A stretch of DNA of 64,000 nt from Bacteriovoracaceae bacterium (lineage in GTDB: Bacteria > Bdellovibrionota > Bacteriovoracia > Bacteriovoracales > Bacteriovoracaceae). Location of the stretch: NCBI GenBank assembly GCA_036171615.1, contig JAVHRK010000153.1:8758-72757 (forward strand), in the 5' to 3' direction. The notes below the pieces were generated by a model. That model made no database searches and was not told the origin of the DNA. It was given only the letters and a program-made list of their open reading frames with translations. This document shows, one piece after another, positions 2,595-32,352 of this stretch. The position numbers and the translations under genes were made by a program. How positions within the stretch are numbered: the stretch's first letter is position 1; every line of letters begins with the position of its first letter.

Positions 2595-4355
2595 ATGACC
2601 GTTTCACAATTAGTTTCATCATTTCTAAACTCAAAAGATTTTACTCGTTTGCTTATCAAAGGGAAGGATCAAAATTTTATCACAGCGGAAGAAGTGAATG
2701 ATGCAATTCCAGCTAGTATTATTTTAGCTGAAGACCTAGATGCCATCATGGGCAAATTCCTCGAGCTTAAAATTGATGTCATGGACAGTGCTGTTGAGGA
2801 AGAAGAAGCTGAAGAAGGTATCCGATTAGACGGTACTGAAATCATCGAAGAAACTTTATCTCGAGAAGAAAAAGCTGAATTAAGATCTGCTTCTACTGAT
2901 CCAGTAAAATTATATTTAAAAAGAATGGGTTCTGTTGCACTTCTAACTCGCGAAGGCGAAGTAGTGATTGCAAAAGAAATTGAAGAAGGTGAAAGAGAAA
3001 TTATTCTTTATGCACTATCATCAACCCATGCACTTAAAGAAGTTGTAAAGCTTCGTGAGAAAATTGAAACTCAAGAAAATCCACAAGAATATGTCAAAGA
3101 ACTTGTGCGTGGACTCGATGATGAATCTTCTCCTCAAGACATTAAAAAAGTTAAAGATAGAATCAATGCAGTTATTGATCAAATAACATTTATTCTTCAA
3201 GAAACAGAAAAAGCAGATGGTACTTTAAAGGCATTGAATCCAGAAGAAAAAAAATTAATGGCCGATATCTCTAATGAGCTTGCCGATCTTACTTTTAACA
3301 GAAAAATTATTAACAGTTTCGTTGAACCAGTTAAGCGTTATTATCTTCAATTTAGAGAACTCTATGATCAACAAGATCGTATTTTTAAATTTATTGAAGT
3401 TAAAGATGCAGATGAATATAAAGTTCTTTACGAAAGAACTTTAGAAGATGATGTTTTCAAAAGAAAACTCGCTAAAGATTTATTTACCAGCGATGCTAAA
3501 ATTGAACAATTAATTAGAAATCAAGAAGACATAATCAGAAAACTTCGTCGACTAAGTATTGACGCCGGTATGGAATATGCTGATATTGAAAAAGTTTATA
3601 AAATTATTATTCACGGAGAAACTAAGGCCGATAAAGCAAAGGCTCAGCTAGTAGAAGCGAACTTGAGACTAGTTGTTTCAATCGCAAAAAAATATACCAA
3701 CCGTGGACTACAATTTCTAGATCTAATCCAAGAAGGGAATATTGGTCTAATGAAGGCTGTGGATAAGTTTGAGTACCGTCGTGGGTATAAGTTTTCAACT
3801 TATGCAACATGGTGGATTCGTCAGGCAATTACACGAGCTATCGCTGATCAGGCCCGTACGATTAGAATTCCAGTTCACATGATTGAAACAATCAATAAAA
3901 TGGTAAGAACTTCAAGACAACTGATCCAAGAATTAGGTCGTGAACCAACTGCAGAAGAAATTGCTGTAAAAATGGAACTTCCTGTTGATAAAGTTAAAAA
4001 AGTTCAAAAGATCTCTAAGGAACCTATCTCACTAGAAACTCCGATTGGAGAAGAAGAAGATTCCAGTTTAGGTGACTTTATTGAAGATAAAAAAATAATC
4101 TCACCTGCAGATGCAGTAATGAGTATTACTTTATCAGAACAAACTAGATCAGTTTTATCAACTCTTACACCAAGGGAAGAAAAAGTTCTAAGAATGAGAT
4201 TTGGAATTGGTGAAAAATCAGACCACACACTTGAAGAAGTTGGTCAGGATTTCTTTGTAACGCGTGAGCGTATTCGTCAAATCGAAGCTAAAGCACTAAG
4301 AAAACTTAGACATCCTTCACGTGCTAAGCTTTTAAAGAGCTACGTAGATAATTAA
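2595..4355 (+). CDS. rpoD: RNA polymerase primary sigma factor (sigma70)
   Basis: Region 1.2 DPVKLYL, region 2 [16 protein letters not shown]...[14 protein letters not shown], region 4 [20 protein letters not shown]; downstream of dnaG. Confidence 0.98.
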
Positions 4356-27322: not shown

Positions 27323-28000
27323 TTATTTTTTAAAGTAGAGCTTAGAATCTAGTGACCAGCGATCAGTTGTAAGATTTTCGTCCTTAACTTTATAAAGCTC
27401 CATCTTTTGGTCTATTTCATCACGGCGCCTTGTTAAATCTAGCATTGAATGGGTAGACGCTAACTTATCAGATTCTAACGCTTGAAGTTCTTTTTTCCAT
27501 TCTTCCTCTAATTTGGCCCTTAGAACTTGATAACGATCATTAAGTGTGTTCACTCTTTCAATATTAGCAGAAATCTCTTTGTTCTTATTGTCAATTTGGC
27601 CCTGTACGGCCAATCGTTTCTTAATCAAAATTCCAACAACTTCTTTTCCCATAACGATATTATTAACTAAGTCTTCACTATAAAATCGAAAATAAGCTCC
27701 TGTCGTAAAATACAAAAACTTTTCACAATATTTTATTTGATTGACCTTTACTAATACGTAACTAGCGCTACGTCCCAAAATATAGCCATTACATTTCTGA
27801 TTTATATTTTTTTCATCCCAAAATTGTATTTGGTCTTTGGGATTTAGATATTTGATGTTATCGAAATCAACTTTTACCCGAACTGTGGAAATCTGGTAAT
27901 TGATGTGAGAAAGCCTTCCTGAAAAGAATCCATCTTCGCTTAACTCAGCTTGTGCCAAATGCGAGTTTAATAAAAAAATGAATAGAAAATATAATTTCAT
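27323..28000 (-). CDS. Exported hypothetical protein (beta-rich N-terminus, coiled-coil C-terminus)
   Basis: Signal peptide ending AQA; heptad-like C-terminal half. Confidence 0.65.
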   Translation of the reverse strand: MKLYFLFIFLLNSHLAQAELSEDGFFSGRLSHINYQISTVRVKVDFDNIKYLNPKDQIQFWDEKNINQKCNGYILGRSASYVLVKVNQIKYCEKFLYFTTGAYFRFYSEDLVNNIVMGKEVVGILIKKRLAVQGQIDNKNKEISANIERVNTLNDRYQVLRAKLEEEWKKELQALESDKLASTHSMLDLTRRRDEIDQKMELYKVKDENLTTDRWSLDSKLYFKK

Positions 28001-28059
28001 TATTTTATTATCGCAAAATTTGCTAAGTAGTAAATAAGGGCAGAGGATTCCCGAGCTTT

Positions 28060-28548
28060 TTACTTGGTTTTAAGCAAGTAAAAATTGATATTCTTTTCTG
28101 TTCGATAAGTAATAATTTCAAAATCTTTTATTGAGTTTAGCATTTTATCTAATGGTCTAGTATCAAATAAGGCCACCATTTTTTTGCCTCGTAAATATTT
28201 CAAAACACTTTTGTCTTTCTGGAGATTGGCGGTGATTAAAAGATCAAAACCTAAATCCATGTTTTGTGCCTCTTTAATATTTTTGGCCCTAATACCTACT
28301 TCCATAGAGGCAAGATTGGTATAGAGTATTTCTCCAGATTCATTGATGAAAAACTTTTCAACCTCATTCCAGATTTGTTTATTTGAATCACGATCAAAAT
28401 TTCCCACATCTAGACTTTTCCCACTACGGGATATTTTTATACCTGACAATGCTTCATATCTTCCGGCCGGAATGGCCTTTCTTGTTTGTGAAGAAAGTGC
28501 AAATGGAATTGCAAGTATCAAAAGAAAAATTAATATATTAGTTTTCAT
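28060..28548 (-). CDS. Exported hypothetical protein
   Basis: Signal peptide; overlaps the upstream gene by 11 nt. Confidence 0.6.
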   Translation of the reverse strand: MKTNILIFLLILAIPFALSSQTRKAIPAGRYEALSGIKISRSGKSLDVGNFDRDSNKQIWNEVEKFFINESGEILYTNLASMEVGIRAKNIKEAQNMDLGFDLLITANLQKDKSVLKYLRGKKMVALFDTRPLDKMLNSIKDFEIITYRTEKNINFYLLKTK

Positions 28549-28981
28549 CAGGAATTACATCGCTCACTTCTTCAGATATTTCGTGTTTTATTTCTTCATT
28601 TCTTATACCAAGATCTACATCGATGTATAAATTCAGAGTTTCATAAAAAACTTTTAGTTCACGAATATAGGAATAGATTCTGTCTTCAACCTTGCTAGGC
28701 ATATCTTGAGTATGATTTACGTACCATCTCATTTCATCAATCTTGGAATAAAATTGATCTAAGCCAATGATTACTTCTGGTCCGCAAATCATCAATTCAC
28801 GCAATTGCGTTTCATCATATCTGTTTTTAAAAATTGCAGGAAAATGATCCCTCGTTCTTTTTAATGAAAACTCCGCCACATATTCCGGAGCTCGATATTT
28901 AACTCTCTCAAATAAACGTTGAGCATCTAGCTTTAAAAGCATTAAAATTCGTTCTGATTGTTCATTAGTTTTTACTTTCAT
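28538..28981 (-). CDS. Hypothetical helical cytoplasmic protein
   Basis: 147-aa ORF tightly packed between same-strand neighbours. Confidence 0.6.
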   Translation of the reverse strand: MKVKTNEQSERILMLLKLDAQRLFERVKYRAPEYVAEFSLKRTRDHFPAIFKNRYDETQLRELMICGPEVIIGLDQFYSKIDEMRWYVNHTQDMPSKVEDRIYSYIRELKVFYETLNLYIDVDLGIRNEEIKHEISEEVSDVIPDEN

Positions 28982-28984
28982 ATC

Positions 28985-29452
28985 TTATGATTTAATCTCT
29001 GCTGTTTCTGGAATTTTTGATCTTTTTCCGCCTGGCCATTCTTCAATTTCATTTTTTGTTTTAAAATAATCGATTGCTATACTCATTACAACTTGCTTGA
29101 GATCTATTGGCAATGGGAAATAAAAGTAGGATTTTTTACTTTGGTATTTTGAAGCATTTTCTATTTCTGAAAATGAACTTAAGTCATAGACGGCAACATG
29201 GCCTCTGGACATTGAAAAATCTAAATATGATTTTTTTATTTCTAAAAAATTCTGAGCAGATAATAGATTATCTCTGAAAATTATAATTTGGTGTCTTTTG
29301 TGTCTATCAATATTTTTTAATTCTGCAACTGTCACCGGGAGCAAAACAATATTCAGCTGGCTAAATTGTTCGGCCATCTGAAAAAAAACACCACCAAGCT
29401 GCTCGGTAGATTTTAAATAAAAAATATAATTAATAATTGATTTCTCACCCAT
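28985..29452 (-). CDS. Hypothetical protein, possible atypical receiver-fold domain
   Basis: Alternating (beta/alpha)5 pattern ending FPLPIDLKQVV, without the canonical acidic pocket or Lys. Confidence 0.5.
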   Translation of the reverse strand: MGEKSIINYIFYLKSTEQLGGVFFQMAEQFSQLNIVLLPVTVAELKNIDRHKRHQIIIFRDNLLSAQNFLEIKKSYLDFSMSRGHVAVYDLSSFSEIENASKYQSKKSYFYFPLPIDLKQVVMSIAIDYFKTKNEIEEWPGGKRSKIPETAEIKS

Positions 29453-29493
29453 GTCTTCTTATCGACATAATGTGAATAAAAATGAATAAATTA

Positions 29494-30279
29494 TTACTTG
29501 ACTAAAACCTTTATCTTTTTAGTTCTTGGTCGTAATACATAAGCTATTAATAGGCCTAAAAATCCTGTGCCAAGAAAATTACCCGGTGAGGAATTTATTT
29601 CTTGAATAGTACCGCAACCTGAAAAAAGTTTATTACTTGATGAGGAGTTTGTTGTTGAATATGGCGAAATATATCCTCCTCCTTGTCTTTCAAGTGTGGA
29701 ATCAACAAGGGCATTCATTCCTGCAATATCATCTGGCTGCAAAGTGCTTATAGACCCAAGATTAGCTTCCATAATGGCCTGTTGATCAGAATGATCTAGG
29801 CCAATGGTGTGGCCAATTTCGTGTAAGAGAGTAATTTTTAAAGTATTACCCCAATTTTGTCTTAAGTAACTTAGACTTCCATTTAAAATAATTACAGTAT
29901 GTTCAAAAAATGTTCCTTGATTATAACGAATTGTTACCGCCAAAGTTCTGCTAGGATCAAAGCCTGTATCATTTCCAAAATTGTCAGACCAGCGAATATA
30001 GTTACCATTATAATTACTACTTTCTTCCACTGGAAGTATGTCCCATAGATTTTTTCCTGTAGCAGCTTCCCACTCATTAAACGCTTCAGTAGAAAGCGCT
30101 TCTAAAAGTGCACCATCAGTTGGATTGGTTACAAATTTTCTCATTTGTATGGGAAATGCTTTCCAGTAAAAACCTCTATTGAAGTCTTGAGTAAAAGCAT
30201 AACCAAAAGAATTTGTAGAAAAGAAAATGGCCATAAGAGAGAGGGAGTAACTTATGGCCAATTTTTTTGTCAATTGCAA
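29494..30279 (-). CDS. Matrixin-family (M10, metzincin) zinc metalloprotease with C-terminal membrane anchor
   Basis: Signal peptide, HEIGHTIGLDH zinc motif, Met-turn AIMEA, DDIAG; tail of Ser-rich linker, GCGTI, hydrophobic helix and RPRTKK. TTG start 8 nt after AAGGA. Confidence 0.88.
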   Translation of the reverse strand: MQLTKKLAISYSLSLMAIFFSTNSFGYAFTQDFNRGFYWKAFPIQMRKFVTNPTDGALLEALSTEAFNEWEAATGKNLWDILPVEESSNYNGNYIRWSDNFGNDTGFDPSRTLAVTIRYNQGTFFEHTVIILNGSLSYLRQNWGNTLKITLLHEIGHTIGLDHSDQQAIMEANLGSISTLQPDDIAGMNALVDSTLERQGGGYISPYSTTNSSSSNKLFSGCGTIQEINSSPGNFLGTGFLGLLIAYVLRPRTKKIKVLVK

Positions 30280-30280
30280 C

Positions 30281-30336
30281 TTTTACATCCTTGTAAAAAA
30301 TTGTGACTATCTAGACCTTTCCATCCATGGAAGGGT
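30281..30336 (-). promoter_or_regulatory. Two CsrA/RsmA-type GGA hairpins in the matrixin leader
   Basis: mRNA hairpins CCUUCCAUGGAUGGAAAGG (30315-30336) and UUUUACA-AGGA-UGUAAAA (30281-30298) both contain CANGGANG; the second is the Shine-Dalgarno site. Confidence 0.65.
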
Positions 30337-30342
30337 TATGAA

Positions 30343-30666
30343 CTATTTTGATGCAAATATTAGAGCAGTACAGAGCCAAGAATCTCGCATTTCCACAGTA
30401 TAAATTTCGCCACTCTTAAAATTTAGTGGGCCATTTTTCACAAGTTGAATTTTTCGAATTGGCATTTCCATACCCTTTAGCGTCTGTATCACTTGAAAGC
30501 TAACTTCTTCCTTTGGGTAAGCAGCGGCCACTACATCTTCAACACTTATAACTGTACCAATAAATTTTTCAGGGCAACTAAGACCGATTTGAGAAGTCGA
30601 GTAAAGAGGCAAGGAAAATAATCCTGTAATAAATCCGACCATCCATAGTCGCTTTGCTTGCTTCAT
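30343..30666 (-). CDS. Small secreted protein with a TIMP/NTR-like OB-fold pattern
   Basis: Signal peptide, then C...FIGTVISVE...VSFQVIQTLKG...FKSGEIYTV...LC, with two Cys near the ends of the domain. Confidence 0.55.
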   Translation of the reverse strand: MKQAKRLWMVGFITGLFSLPLYSTSQIGLSCPEKFIGTVISVEDVVAAAYPKEEVSFQVIQTLKGMEMPIRKIQLVKNGPLNFKSGEIYTVEMRDSWLCTALIFASK

Positions 30667-30730
30667 CCTAAAGCTCCTTTATTTTCCTTTAAACTCTTGT
30701 GAGATCTTCCTAATCTCTTAATTATTAATG

Positions 30731-30749
30731 TGCACAGGTCGTGCCAAAA
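30731..30749 (-). promoter_or_regulatory. Sigma54 (RpoN) -24/-12 promoter
   Basis: Minus strand TTTTGGCACGACCTGTGCA has TGGCACG and exact GG-N10-GC spacing, 65 nt upstream of ATG 30666. Confidence 0.75.
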
Positions 30750-30795: not shown

Positions 30796-30855
30796 TGACA
30801 CTTTTTATCCTGATTTAGGTGTCAAAAGAAAAAGTCAGATTCCAAAAAATTGACT
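30796..30855. promoter_or_regulatory. Candidate upstream activator sites for a sigma54 enhancer-binding protein
   Basis: Inverted repeats TGACAC-N17-GTGTCA (30796-30824) and AGTCA-N13-TGACT (30833-30855), 50-110 bp upstream of the -24 element. Confidence 0.45.
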
Positions 30856-30866
30856 CCGTAAAAAAA

Positions 30867-31388
30867 TTACTCGAATTTAAATTTATCTTTATGTAGATGA
30901 TGAAGTCTTAAAAATCCAAGCACTGCAGAAGACCAACGCAGCTTATCTGACATAATAAGGTCAAATAATTCATTGTAAGAAAATTTTTCAATTGAAACAA
31001 CGACATCTCCATCGGGATTAGGTAAAGGATCTTCTACAAGCTCAGTTGCTAATACAAAAGAAACTGAATTGTTTACTGTACCGCTAGATTTAATTTCAAA
31101 AAACTTTTCTAGCTTATTGGCCCGTAAACCAACTTCTTCACGTAATTCTTTATTTGCATTTTCTAACACAGTTAACTCTTCTTCTATATGTCCCGCAACG
31201 AATCGTAAGCGAATTTTTACATCCTCATGTGGACGTCGTTCATTAATTAAAATAAATTTACCGTCATTATCAATTGCATAAACGATAACCCCATTTCGAA
31301 GATAGCACCGTTCCCAATTATTTTCTTCAATCATCTCTTCAGTCACTTTTATATAGCGACCTTGATACATTGTATTTTCCATCATCAT
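30867..31388 (-). CDS. NUDIX hydrolase (ADP-ribose pyrophosphatase-like)
   Basis: Nudix box AGHIEEELTVLENANKELREEVG. Confidence 0.85.
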   Translation of the reverse strand: MMMENTMYQGRYIKVTEEMIEENNWERCYLRNGVIVYAIDNDGKFILINERRPHEDVKIRLRFVAGHIEEELTVLENANKELREEVGLRANKLEKFFEIKSSGTVNNSVSFVLATELVEDPLPNPDGDVVVSIEKFSYNELFDLIMSDKLRWSSAVLGFLRLHHLHKDKFKFE

Positions 31389-31804
31389 TCCCGTATATAG
31401 TTAATAGATTTTTTATATTCATAAGTATGTTTGCTATTAAATATTTCTATCTCAAATAAGATACCTGTTGGACTTAATTTGTAGACCTGGGTTTGATAAT
31501 ATATATCCCAGAGATGCTTATCGATTATATTGATGGTTAAGGCTTGCTCATCTACAAAAGCTAATTCTGTAATTGTCCGACCACCTCTATTCCAAATAAG
31601 TCTGGTTAAGTTGTCTGCTATAACATGCCCAGTTCGTGATTCGGCCGGTAGAGCAAGCTCGAAAGTTGGAGCACAATTACTTACCTTTATTTCGAGAATA
31701 TTACTAACATTAGTCTCATCAATATACTTTCCTACAAAGGATTCTTCACAAGAAAAAGTATTAGTAGTGAATAATATTATAGTGATCGTAAGAAAAGTTT
31801 TCAT
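31385..31804 (-). CDS. Exported beta-strand-rich hypothetical protein
   Basis: Signal peptide, two Cys, ATGA overlap with the NUDIX gene. Confidence 0.6.
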   Translation of the reverse strand: MKTFLTITIILFTTNTFSCEESFVGKYIDETNVSNILEIKVSNCAPTFELALPAESRTGHVIADNLTRLIWNRGGRTITELAFVDEQALTINIIDKHLWDIYYQTQVYKLSPTGILFEIEIFNSKHTYEYKKSINYIRE

Positions 31805-31806
31805 GA

Positions 31807-32352
31807 TTACTCCATTTCAAGAAATTTTACTCTGAGATGATTTTCCTCTGCCGTTAGACTAGCAAAATGAGAGGCATTTTTATTTTTACTAGATGAAACA
31901 CACTCGATAAGTTCTTCATTAATATACAAGGCACCTACCCCATCATCAAGGGCAATTCCACCATTCAGAATTCCATCCTTGATAAATTTAATTAACGTAG
32001 GCCTTCGATTTTCTTCTCCATCAAAGTGTGGACAGGCGCTTCCTTTTAAAATCCCTAAACATTCTATTTTTTCTAGGGCACCACCAATATGAATAATATC
32101 TTGATTAAAAATAAAATCACGAAGATCTCTAGTAGGTGGCTTAAAAAGTGAAAGATAGGTATAGTCGCAATCAAGAGTTCGGTAAGCATCTTGAAACTGA
32201 TTAATAGAGTGTTCACTGTCTCCACTAGCCGTTCCAATAAAACAAATTTTAGGATTTTTTTTCACAGACAAAGACAAAATATATTTATCTAGTAATAAAT
32301 TATCGGGCTCCATGGCAAAGCCACCGCCGCCCATAATAAATAATTTACGCAT
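31807..32352 (-). pseudogene. Peptidase E (S51) homolog with an in-frame internal deletion removing the catalytic Ser region
   Basis: Both ends are typical (MGGGGF, KICFIGTASGD, QDIIHIGG; CLGILKGSACPHFDGE, GIALDDG), but the GGGNT...G-x-SAG segment between them is absent. Confidence 0.7.

Follow-up and report, generated by a model that had tools for sequence, protein, structure and literature searches.

We report a conserved gene pair of predatory bacteria, analysed in a 64,000-nucleotide stretch of the Bacteriovoracaceae assembly GCA_036171615.1 (contig JAVHRK010000153.1), hereafter the window. Gene 1 encodes a small exported protein of 107 amino acids (aa), and gene 2, directly downstream on the same strand, encodes a secreted matrixin (M10) metalloprotease. 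The pair is real, recurs throughout the relatives that we examined and is undescribed. The gene 1 protein is predicted to form a small barrel, and we argue below, by analogy with known bacterial systems, that it may be a cognate inhibitor of the protease encoded next to it. The window sequence itself occurs in groundwater DNA metagenomes only (metagenome lookup).

Gene 1 and the matrixin gene are linked across relatives

A matrixin homologue lay directly downstream of the gene 1 relative in 31 of the 31 related loci whose contig continues downstream. These loci span gene 1 identities of 23–80% and include that of the cultured Bacteriovorax stolpii; the linked members at 23–37% identity come from genomes whose GroEL is 77–78% identical to that of the window. 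Linkage to M10 proteases in relatives, which the first-pass annotation of this locus had proposed as a check, thus held. The surroundings of the pair vary between loci (NUDIX, S51, DUF900, PTPS and methyltransferase genes): upstream of gene 1 stand NUDIX and S51 in the window and DUF900 or nothing in the other loci, and the genes past the fourth open reading frame (ORF) differ, while the pair stays together.

The spacer between the two genes ranges from 10 to 108 nt across loci. In the window the ORF listing puts it at 63 nt with both genes on the same strand, and we found no terminator in it, from which we infer that gene 1 and gene 2 are co-transcribed. The TTG start of gene 2 aligns with ATG or TTG starts of its relatives. 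Both ORFs were recovered on the minus strand where the first-pass annotation had placed them (Table 1), and its view that the 107-aa gene 1 product is exported was upheld by a Sec-type signal peptide; signal peptides of both proteins were assigned by eye and from the family alignments. Its description of the host as a predator agrees with the Bacteriovoracaceae lineage. It had also described a two-gene unit. The pair was borne out, but not its limits: two further conserved ORFs follow without an intervening terminator, and the transcription unit probably contains more than gene 1 and gene 2.

An undescribed family of small exported proteins

Close homologues of the gene 1 protein (43 sequences, 48–81% identical) belonged, wherever the source was named, to Bacteriovorax or Bacteriovoracaceae genomes. 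When one genome was scanned for each species, 21 gene 1 loci were recovered, all from Bacteriovorax, Bacteriovoracaceae or Bacteriovoracales metagenome-assembled genomes (MAGs). A profile search of 1.84 billion representatives returned 121 family proteins (cluster representatives), nearly all 83–171 aa long and with both cysteines kept, and a metagenome scan with a narrower gene 1 alignment gave 3 loci. So far the family has been seen in Bacteriovoracaceae-type predators only. The window protein had no match in Pfam at E ≤ 1 and none in NCBIfam, ten distant members likewise had none in Pfam, and the family profile found nothing among PDB sequences except a chance match at E 1.1. Judged by these searches, the family is undescribed.

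An alignment of 117 members shows which features are kept. Small residues at −3 and −1 (alignment positions 21 and 23) point to the signal cleavage site, the −1 residue lying 7–8 residues ahead of the first Cys across the family. In the window protein this Cys (S-C-P-E-K) is single and lies 7 residues past the predicted site. The first-pass annotation had counted two cysteines only, the first about 7 residues after cleavage, and the alignment confirmed this. The 7-residue segment ahead of Cys31 is variable in sequence and has almost no insertions or deletions. The two Cys are retained in 114 and 116 of the 117 members; because two co-conserved Cys occur in an exported protein, a single disulfide is suggested, which would tie the N-terminal region to strand 5. 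An invariant C-P-x-K-F-x-G-x-V opens strand 1, so that the C-x4-FIGT motif of the first-pass annotation reads in fact C-x3-FIGT. K52, V55, F57 and G65 are conserved as well, strands 3 and 4 are joined by the best-conserved loop of the protein (L76-K-x-G-P-x-x-F-x-x-G86), and Y89 and L-C99 are conserved in the last strands. We considered that gene 1 might encode a lipoprotein, as the potempins discussed below do, and rejected this: the position before the Cys is often taken by K, Q, E, N or D, which is incompatible with a lipobox, and there is an AxA-type site farther upstream.

Three further sequences touch on this family. One Bacteriovoracales MAG locus (L006) holds a second, diverged gene 1 paralogue at 2928–3251 (86 bits against the family hidden Markov model, HMM), about 1 kb upstream of the regular copy and adjoining a homologue of the window ORF 31385–31804. 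That window ORF, which reads SCEESFVGKY, was considered as a gene 1 homologue and set aside, as the family HMM finds gene 1 alone in the window. A 722-aa protein with repeated immunoglobulin-like units (P0123) matched the gene 1 profile weakly in four places (E 2e-6), which probably reflects chance similarity amplified by the repeats.

The gene 1 protein is predicted to be an OB barrel

A first AlphaFold2 model, built from 27 close sequences, was of moderate quality (predicted local distance difference test, pLDDT, 71.7), and its Foldseek matches were generic oligonucleotide/oligosaccharide-binding (OB) folds. It was replaced by a second model of the mature chain based on 97 diverse members (pLDDT 89.6, predicted template modelling score, pTM, 0.77), which gave a five-stranded OB barrel, and we predict this fold with high confidence. 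No helix was assigned in the models by DSSP, and mature residues 1–4 fell below pLDDT 50 in the 97-sequence model.

Compared with the PDB by Foldseek, the model matched best the NTR domain of PCOLCE1 (E 0.011, template modelling score, TM, 0.66). Only two classes reached TM ≥ 0.57, namely NTR-type modules and bacterial DUF2500 barrels. NTR/TIMP modules made up 10 of the top 50 matches, rank 1 included (among them 1uap, 1br9, 1jb3, 7tlh, 6xzu, 6mav, 1uea and 3ma2, TM 0.57–0.66), with TIMP-2, TIMP-1 (three complexes), agrin NtA, meteorin NTR and C3/C4 C345C at TM 0.57–0.61. CsaA, PheRS-beta and ribosomal S12 scored lower than these two classes (CsaA, TM 0.51–0.52 with a root-mean-square deviation of about 6 Å).

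The first-pass annotation had read the strand pattern of a TIMP/NTR fold from the gene 1 sequence and had proposed structure prediction against TIMP/NTR structures as a check. As a statement about fold this stands, with an OB barrel whose best matches are NTR/TIMP modules. As a statement about homology it does not: none of these matches is statistically significant, DUF2500 barrels match equally well, and a profile alignment with TIMP-1 failed, as detailed below. The TIMP analogy holds for fold and gene logic, not for family membership.

A matrixin without a prodomain

Gene 2 matched PF00413 (Peptidase_M10) with 34.1 bits against a gathering score of 24, and its best PDB sequence matches were the catalytic domains of the matrix metalloproteases (MMPs) MMP-12 and MMP-8. 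Together with the HEIGHTIGLDH zinc site and the Met-turn, this substantiates the first-pass assignment as an exported metzincin; the H, E, H, G, H and M residues of these motifs do not vary among 22 homologues. A search found 173 homologues, some of them named matrixin family metalloprotease and one from cultured B. stolpii.

The mature protease is predicted to begin at Y27, with Y-x-F-T-x-D-F-x-x-G-x-Y-W and a 173-residue catalytic domain directly past the signal peptide. Residues 97–191 align to positions 59–156 of the MMP-8 catalytic domain, with about 11 residues to spare. The alignment showed no prodomain and no Cys-switch (PRCGxPD), the sole Cys lying in the C-terminal tag. Because there is no room for a prodomain after the signal peptide, latency of gene 2 cannot be intramolecular.

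Behind the catalytic domain, a Ser/Thr-rich linker leads to a conserved [AST]-C-G-[ST]-[IV]-E, after which come a spacer rich in Gly, a hydrophobic helix and a basic terminus. The layout is similar to that of MYXO-CTERM-type sorting signals, and the tail is a candidate membrane-sorting tag. Four such tails had no NCBIfam match at E ≤ 10, and no second protein with a tail of this type was found among the window ORFs.

A sigma54-type promoter and GGA-loop hairpins precede both genes

The element TGGCACGACCTGTGCA upstream of gene 1 is the only sigma54-type match in the 64-kb window, where 0.05 are expected. Of 32 loci (the window and 31 related loci), 29 have the motif TGGCA[CT]-N5-xTGCA upstream of gene 1, among them the distant loci L025, L029 and L030. 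These counts bear out the first-pass claim that the unit has its own sigma54-type promoter. Farther upstream, an element of the type TTGACAC...GTGTC(C/T)TTTCGTCAC, in which TTTCGTCAC is an extension seen in relatives, is found at the corresponding position in most close relatives. The inverted repeat of the window at this place is plausibly a candidate enhancer-binding-protein site (upstream activating sequence).

Gene 1 leaders contain 2–8 GGA against 0.7–1.9 expected (3–5 fold enriched) and 1–3 GGA-loop hairpins each; across 28 distinct leaders, 63 GGA fell in predicted hairpin loops compared with 4.2 in shuffles. Hairpin C, around the gene 1 AUG, is invariant in 17 leaders, and this may partly explain the conserved MK(Q/H) N-terminus. 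RNAalifold on the leaders recovered only this invariant hairpin, which carries no covariation information, and support for the other leader and spacer hairpins comes from folds of single sequences and from stems that plainly vary from locus to locus. In the spacer between the genes, the GGATGG core of hairpin HP1 is invariant in 26 spacers while its stems vary by locus, and 25 of the 26 minimum-free-energy folds place its GGA in a loop. The TTTACAAGGA.GTAAAA of hairpin HP2 is invariant in the same number of spacers (26). Among close loci its loop was predicted in 22 of 26, and among distant loci in 3 of 4, the latter with different stems (ACA/TGT, AACCT/AGGTT). The spacer also contains ACAAGGATGT, which we take to resemble the consensus obtained for CsrA by systematic evolution of ligands by exponential enrichment (SELEX).

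CsrA recognises GGA-loop hairpins at ribosome-binding sites, and Bdellovibrio CsrA is functional on such a target (PMC13443453). The CsrA-repressed hag leader of Bacillus subtilis resembles our locus in having at least two GGA stem-loops before the start codon, one of them with the Shine-Dalgarno sequence (PMC13443453). No csrA gene was found in the window, and the best Rfam match in the region (CsrB, 30611–30735, 20.5 bits, E 0.0032) was far below the gathering score. CsrA may act at both cistrons, and the spacer looks like a CsrA-type translational gate. Because both cistrons start inside GGA-loop hairpins, translation is probably gated too.

Possible roles of the gene 1 protein

We tentatively favor, at somewhat less than even chances, the reading that the gene 1 protein is a cognate inhibitor that binds the neighbouring matrixin. 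The main functional argument is that a Sec-exported, already mature enzyme needs latency from outside. The gene 1 protein would be a tight-binding inhibitor, that is, a latency factor supplied in trans, and would prevent the protease from acting in the periplasm of the predator itself before surface sorting or release, in functional analogy to potempin A/karilysin, aprin/serralysin and TIMP/MMP. Binding would involve the constant-length, flexible N-terminal segment and/or the beta3–beta4 loop (L-K-x-G-P-x-x-F-x-x-G). The unit would be transcribed from the sigma54 promoter and its translation gated at the GGA-loop hairpins. A low-confidence N-terminal segment of near-constant length is as expected for a segment that becomes ordered only on binding. 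Several observations weigh against an inhibitor. In sequence, gene 1 resembles neither a known inhibitor nor a PDB chain, its N-terminal segment is variable in sequence, and we saw no charge complementarity, gene 1 being near neutral and the protease acidic. In the model, strands E65–71 and E74–80 (beta4–beta5) are joined by a turn of 2 residues, at the place where OB-fold potempins have their inhibitory loop. No Foldseek match reached E < 0.001 (all E ≥ 0.011), and generic OB proteins (CsaA, PheRS-beta, S12, DUF2500) were matched too. The two cytoplasmic ORFs that follow are linked as tightly as gene 1, and most loci have groEL and opp genes on either side of the block, so part of the linkage signal may be plain lineage-wide synteny.

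The gene 1 protein could instead be a partner of the protease without inhibiting it: a folding or escort chaperone, a helper in sorting the tag, or a targeting subunit that binds substrate or cell wall. We regard this as unlikely, though a serious contender. It draws on the same linkage and co-expression evidence as an inhibitor does, the usual ligands of OB folds are oligosaccharides, oligonucleotides or peptides, the secretion chaperone CsaA is among the top Foldseek matches, and the unusual C-terminal tag of the protease needs handling. The resemblance to CsaA is, however, that of a generic OB fold, given its TM and deviation, and a missing prodomain calls for a latency device, not a foldase; small single-domain matrixins are not known to need helpers for folding, which also counts against such a role. 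Slightly less plausible to us is a periplasmic OB-fold protein unrelated to the protease and held next to it only by frozen gene order or by shared sigma54/CsrA regulation. The order groES-groEL ... gene 1-M10-two ORFs ... SBP_bac_5-opp is preserved in most loci, down to a groEL identity of 77%, the next two ORFs are equally linked and, without a signal peptide, cannot act on a periplasmic protease, and DUF2500 barrels match the model as well as NTR modules do. Yet the flanking genes change and gene 1 is never parted from the protease gene, from which it is separated by a short spacer (10–108 nt), with regulatory hairpins conserved in close relatives and in two distant loci.

We consider it extremely unlikely that gene 1 is a true, highly diverged TIMP/NTR homologue that chelates zinc in the canonical way through a free N-terminal residue beside the Cys after trimming. 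The share of NTR/TIMP modules among the top 50 Foldseek matches, rank 1 included, speaks for it, as do a local K-F-[IV]-G-T match to TIMP-1 residues 22–26 and the conserved Cys before strand 1 and in the last strand, which resemble the Cys3–Cys99 link of TIMP. Against this, hhalign gave 0.35% probability over 8 columns with the TIMP-1 N-domain (an approximate query sequence), and neither PF00965 nor PF01759 matched. Gene 1 has no Cys-x-Cys, 2 Cys compared with 6 in the N-domain, no predicted helices and a family-wide signal-peptidase site 7–8 residues before the Cys, and its best Foldseek E-value is 0.011. Very improbable, too, is the wider proposal that the family is a bacterial relative of NTR/TIMP, with a matrixin–inhibitor pair shared or transferred between bacteria and animal ancestors and a prokaryotic root for TIMPs.

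Layout of the locus and neighbouring genes

Table 1. Features of the gene 1–gene 2 locus in window coordinates
Feature	Position	Strand	Remarks
Inverted repeat TTGACAC-N15-GTGTC	30797–30825	minus	about 50–95 bp upstream of the −24/−12 element
Sigma54-type −24/−12 element TGGCACGACCTGTGCA	30731–30746	minus	unique match in the window
Gene 1 leader with GGA-loop hairpins	30660–30730	minus	hairpins A and C
Hairpin A, GAGAT-TAGGAAG-ATCTC	30701–30717	minus	in gene 1 leader
Hairpin C, GCTT-TAGGATG-AAGC	30660–30674	minus	encloses gene 1 start codon
Gene 1	30343–30666	minus	ORF of 107-aa precursor
Gene 1 signal peptide	30598–30666	minus	predicted
Mature gene 1 protein, 84 aa, predicted OB barrel	30346–30597	minus	invariant Cys31 and Cys99; N-terminal segment TSQIGLS
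HP1, CCCTTCC-ATGGAT-GGAAAGG	30316–30335	minus	gene 1–gene 2 spacer; GGA in loop
HP2, TTTTAC-AAGGAT-GTAAAA	30281–30300	minus	Shine-Dalgarno AAGGA of gene 2 in loop; ends one base before TTG start
Gene 2, matrixin (M10) metalloprotease	29494–30279	minus	261 aa, TTG start
Gene 2 signal peptide	30202–30279	minus	predicted
Gene 2 catalytic domain, no prodomain	29683–30201	minus	PF00413, alignment
HEIGHTIGLDH zinc site	29791–29823	minus	gene 2
Met of Met-turn	29770–29772	minus	gene 2
C-terminal tag, candidate for sorting, FSGCGT...hydrophobic...RPRTKK	29497–29625	minus	gene 2, after Ser-rich linker
Hairpin ATGTC-GATAAGAA-GACAT	29451–29468	minus	overlaps start codon of the 155-aa ORF after gene 2
Two conserved ORFs, 155 aa and 147 aa	28985–29452 and 28538–28981	minus	directly after the pair, without signal peptide

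The 155-aa and 147-aa ORFs follow the matrixin gene in every locus that is long enough, including the distant loci L025, L029 and L030, and neither had a match in Pfam, NCBIfam or the PDB. No T-run terminator was found between gene 2 and the 155-aa ORF. At the start codon of that ORF, which it would sequester, a hairpin of the form xxCC-GAUAAxxx-GGxxAUG with covarying stems is present in about 25 loci.

Beyond these ORFs, the region 27323–28548 (minus strand) holds two more small secreted ORFs, a 162-aa one and a 225-aa one that includes a coiled-coil region. In distant loci the 162-aa ORF is replaced by methyltransferase/PTPS genes, and the 225-aa ORF is retained ahead of the SBP_bac_5/opp genes. 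On the other side of the pair, the Peptidase_S51 ORF (31807–32352, minus strand) is short (181 aa), matches its Pfam model in two separate segments and may be a truncated or disrupted gene.

Implications

If gene 1 inhibits its neighbour, it founds a new metallopeptidase-inhibitor family. After the TIMPs and potempin A, this would be a third case in which an OB barrel has independently been turned against matrixins, and it would show how a predator protects its own envelope from digestion by a surface protease that has no prodomain. Cultured B. stolpii carries the pair, so the idea is directly testable. A small, disulfide-stabilised and specific matrixin binder could also serve as a scaffold for selective MMP inhibitors. 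Apart from the function of gene 1, the locus is a candidate target for control by CsrA and sigma54 in predatory bacteria, a group in which regulation of this kind has hardly been explored (PMC13443453).

Comparison with known systems

The closest precedent is the potempin/KLIKK-peptidase system of Tannerella forsythia, not TIMP. The first-pass annotation had overlooked this bacterial system and that of aprin/serralysin, as well as the control elements at the RNA level. Potempins are encoded by ORFs of 98–132 aa that lie immediately before the genes of secreted peptidases and share a transcript with them; they are proven inhibitors, and three of them (PotA, PotC and PotD) are five-stranded OB barrels (PMC9890683). 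The inhibitor of the MMP-like karilysin is PotA, which protects the outer membrane of the producing cell (PMC9890683). Like the potempin A/karilysin pair, our locus combines a small upstream ORF (107 aa here) with an M10 MMP-like partner and a predicted five-stranded OB barrel, and its presumed purpose is likewise to guard the producer's own envelope. Potempins differ in being lipoproteins with a lipobox Cys (PMC9890683), whereas gene 1 has polar or charged residues before the Cys and no lipobox. PotA inhibits through two loops, one of them inserted between beta4 and beta5 (PMC9890683), where gene 1 has its 2-residue turn. No potempin appeared among the top 50 Foldseek matches of gene 1 or among its PDB sequence matches. 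Karilysin carries a short propeptide and a type IX secretion system (T9SS) C-terminal domain. Unlike karilysin, gene 2 lacks a propeptide and bears a Cys-Gly/transmembrane/basic tag. An OB-fold inhibitor gene ahead of an MMP-like protease is thus a bacterial concept already known, to which our locus adds an undescribed gene pair.

TIMPs are described as an animal family (PMC4860685). Gene 1 resembles TIMP/NTR proteins (PF00965, PF01759) in its predicted OB-barrel core, its secretion, its pairing with a matrixin and its Cys near the N-terminus and in the last strand. It differs in lacking an N-terminal Cys-x-Cys and alpha-helices, in having a single possible disulfide against three, in its mature length of 84 residues compared with about 125 for the TIMP N-domain, and in showing no sequence or profile similarity. 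DUF2500 (PF10694; 3q6c, 3rd4) is, like gene 1 by prediction, a small bacterial OB-like barrel (TM 0.58–0.64 on the query and 0.66–0.75 on the target), but has no sequence similarity to gene 1 and gives no mechanistic lead.

The inhibitors aprin, Inh and SmaPI (MEROPS I38) are periplasmic, Sec-exported small barrels that act on serralysins (M10B) and are operon-encoded with the protease. Serralysins are M10 proteases without a classical prodomain and are exported by type I secretion. The I38 barrel has eight strands; its N-terminal trunk enters the active-site cleft, where the alpha-amine binds zinc. Gene 1 is similar in its signal peptide, its M10 linkage and its 7-residue, low-confidence N-terminal segment before the barrel, and dissimilar in its five predicted strands and the absence of a PF02974 match, and gene 2, unlike serralysins, has a Sec signal peptide. 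By sequence and predicted structure, gene 1 fits the definition of neither the potempins nor I38. What it appears to share with potempin A and aprin, by analogy, is a common logic of gene position, export, a small barrel, an M10 partner and a free N-terminal segment.

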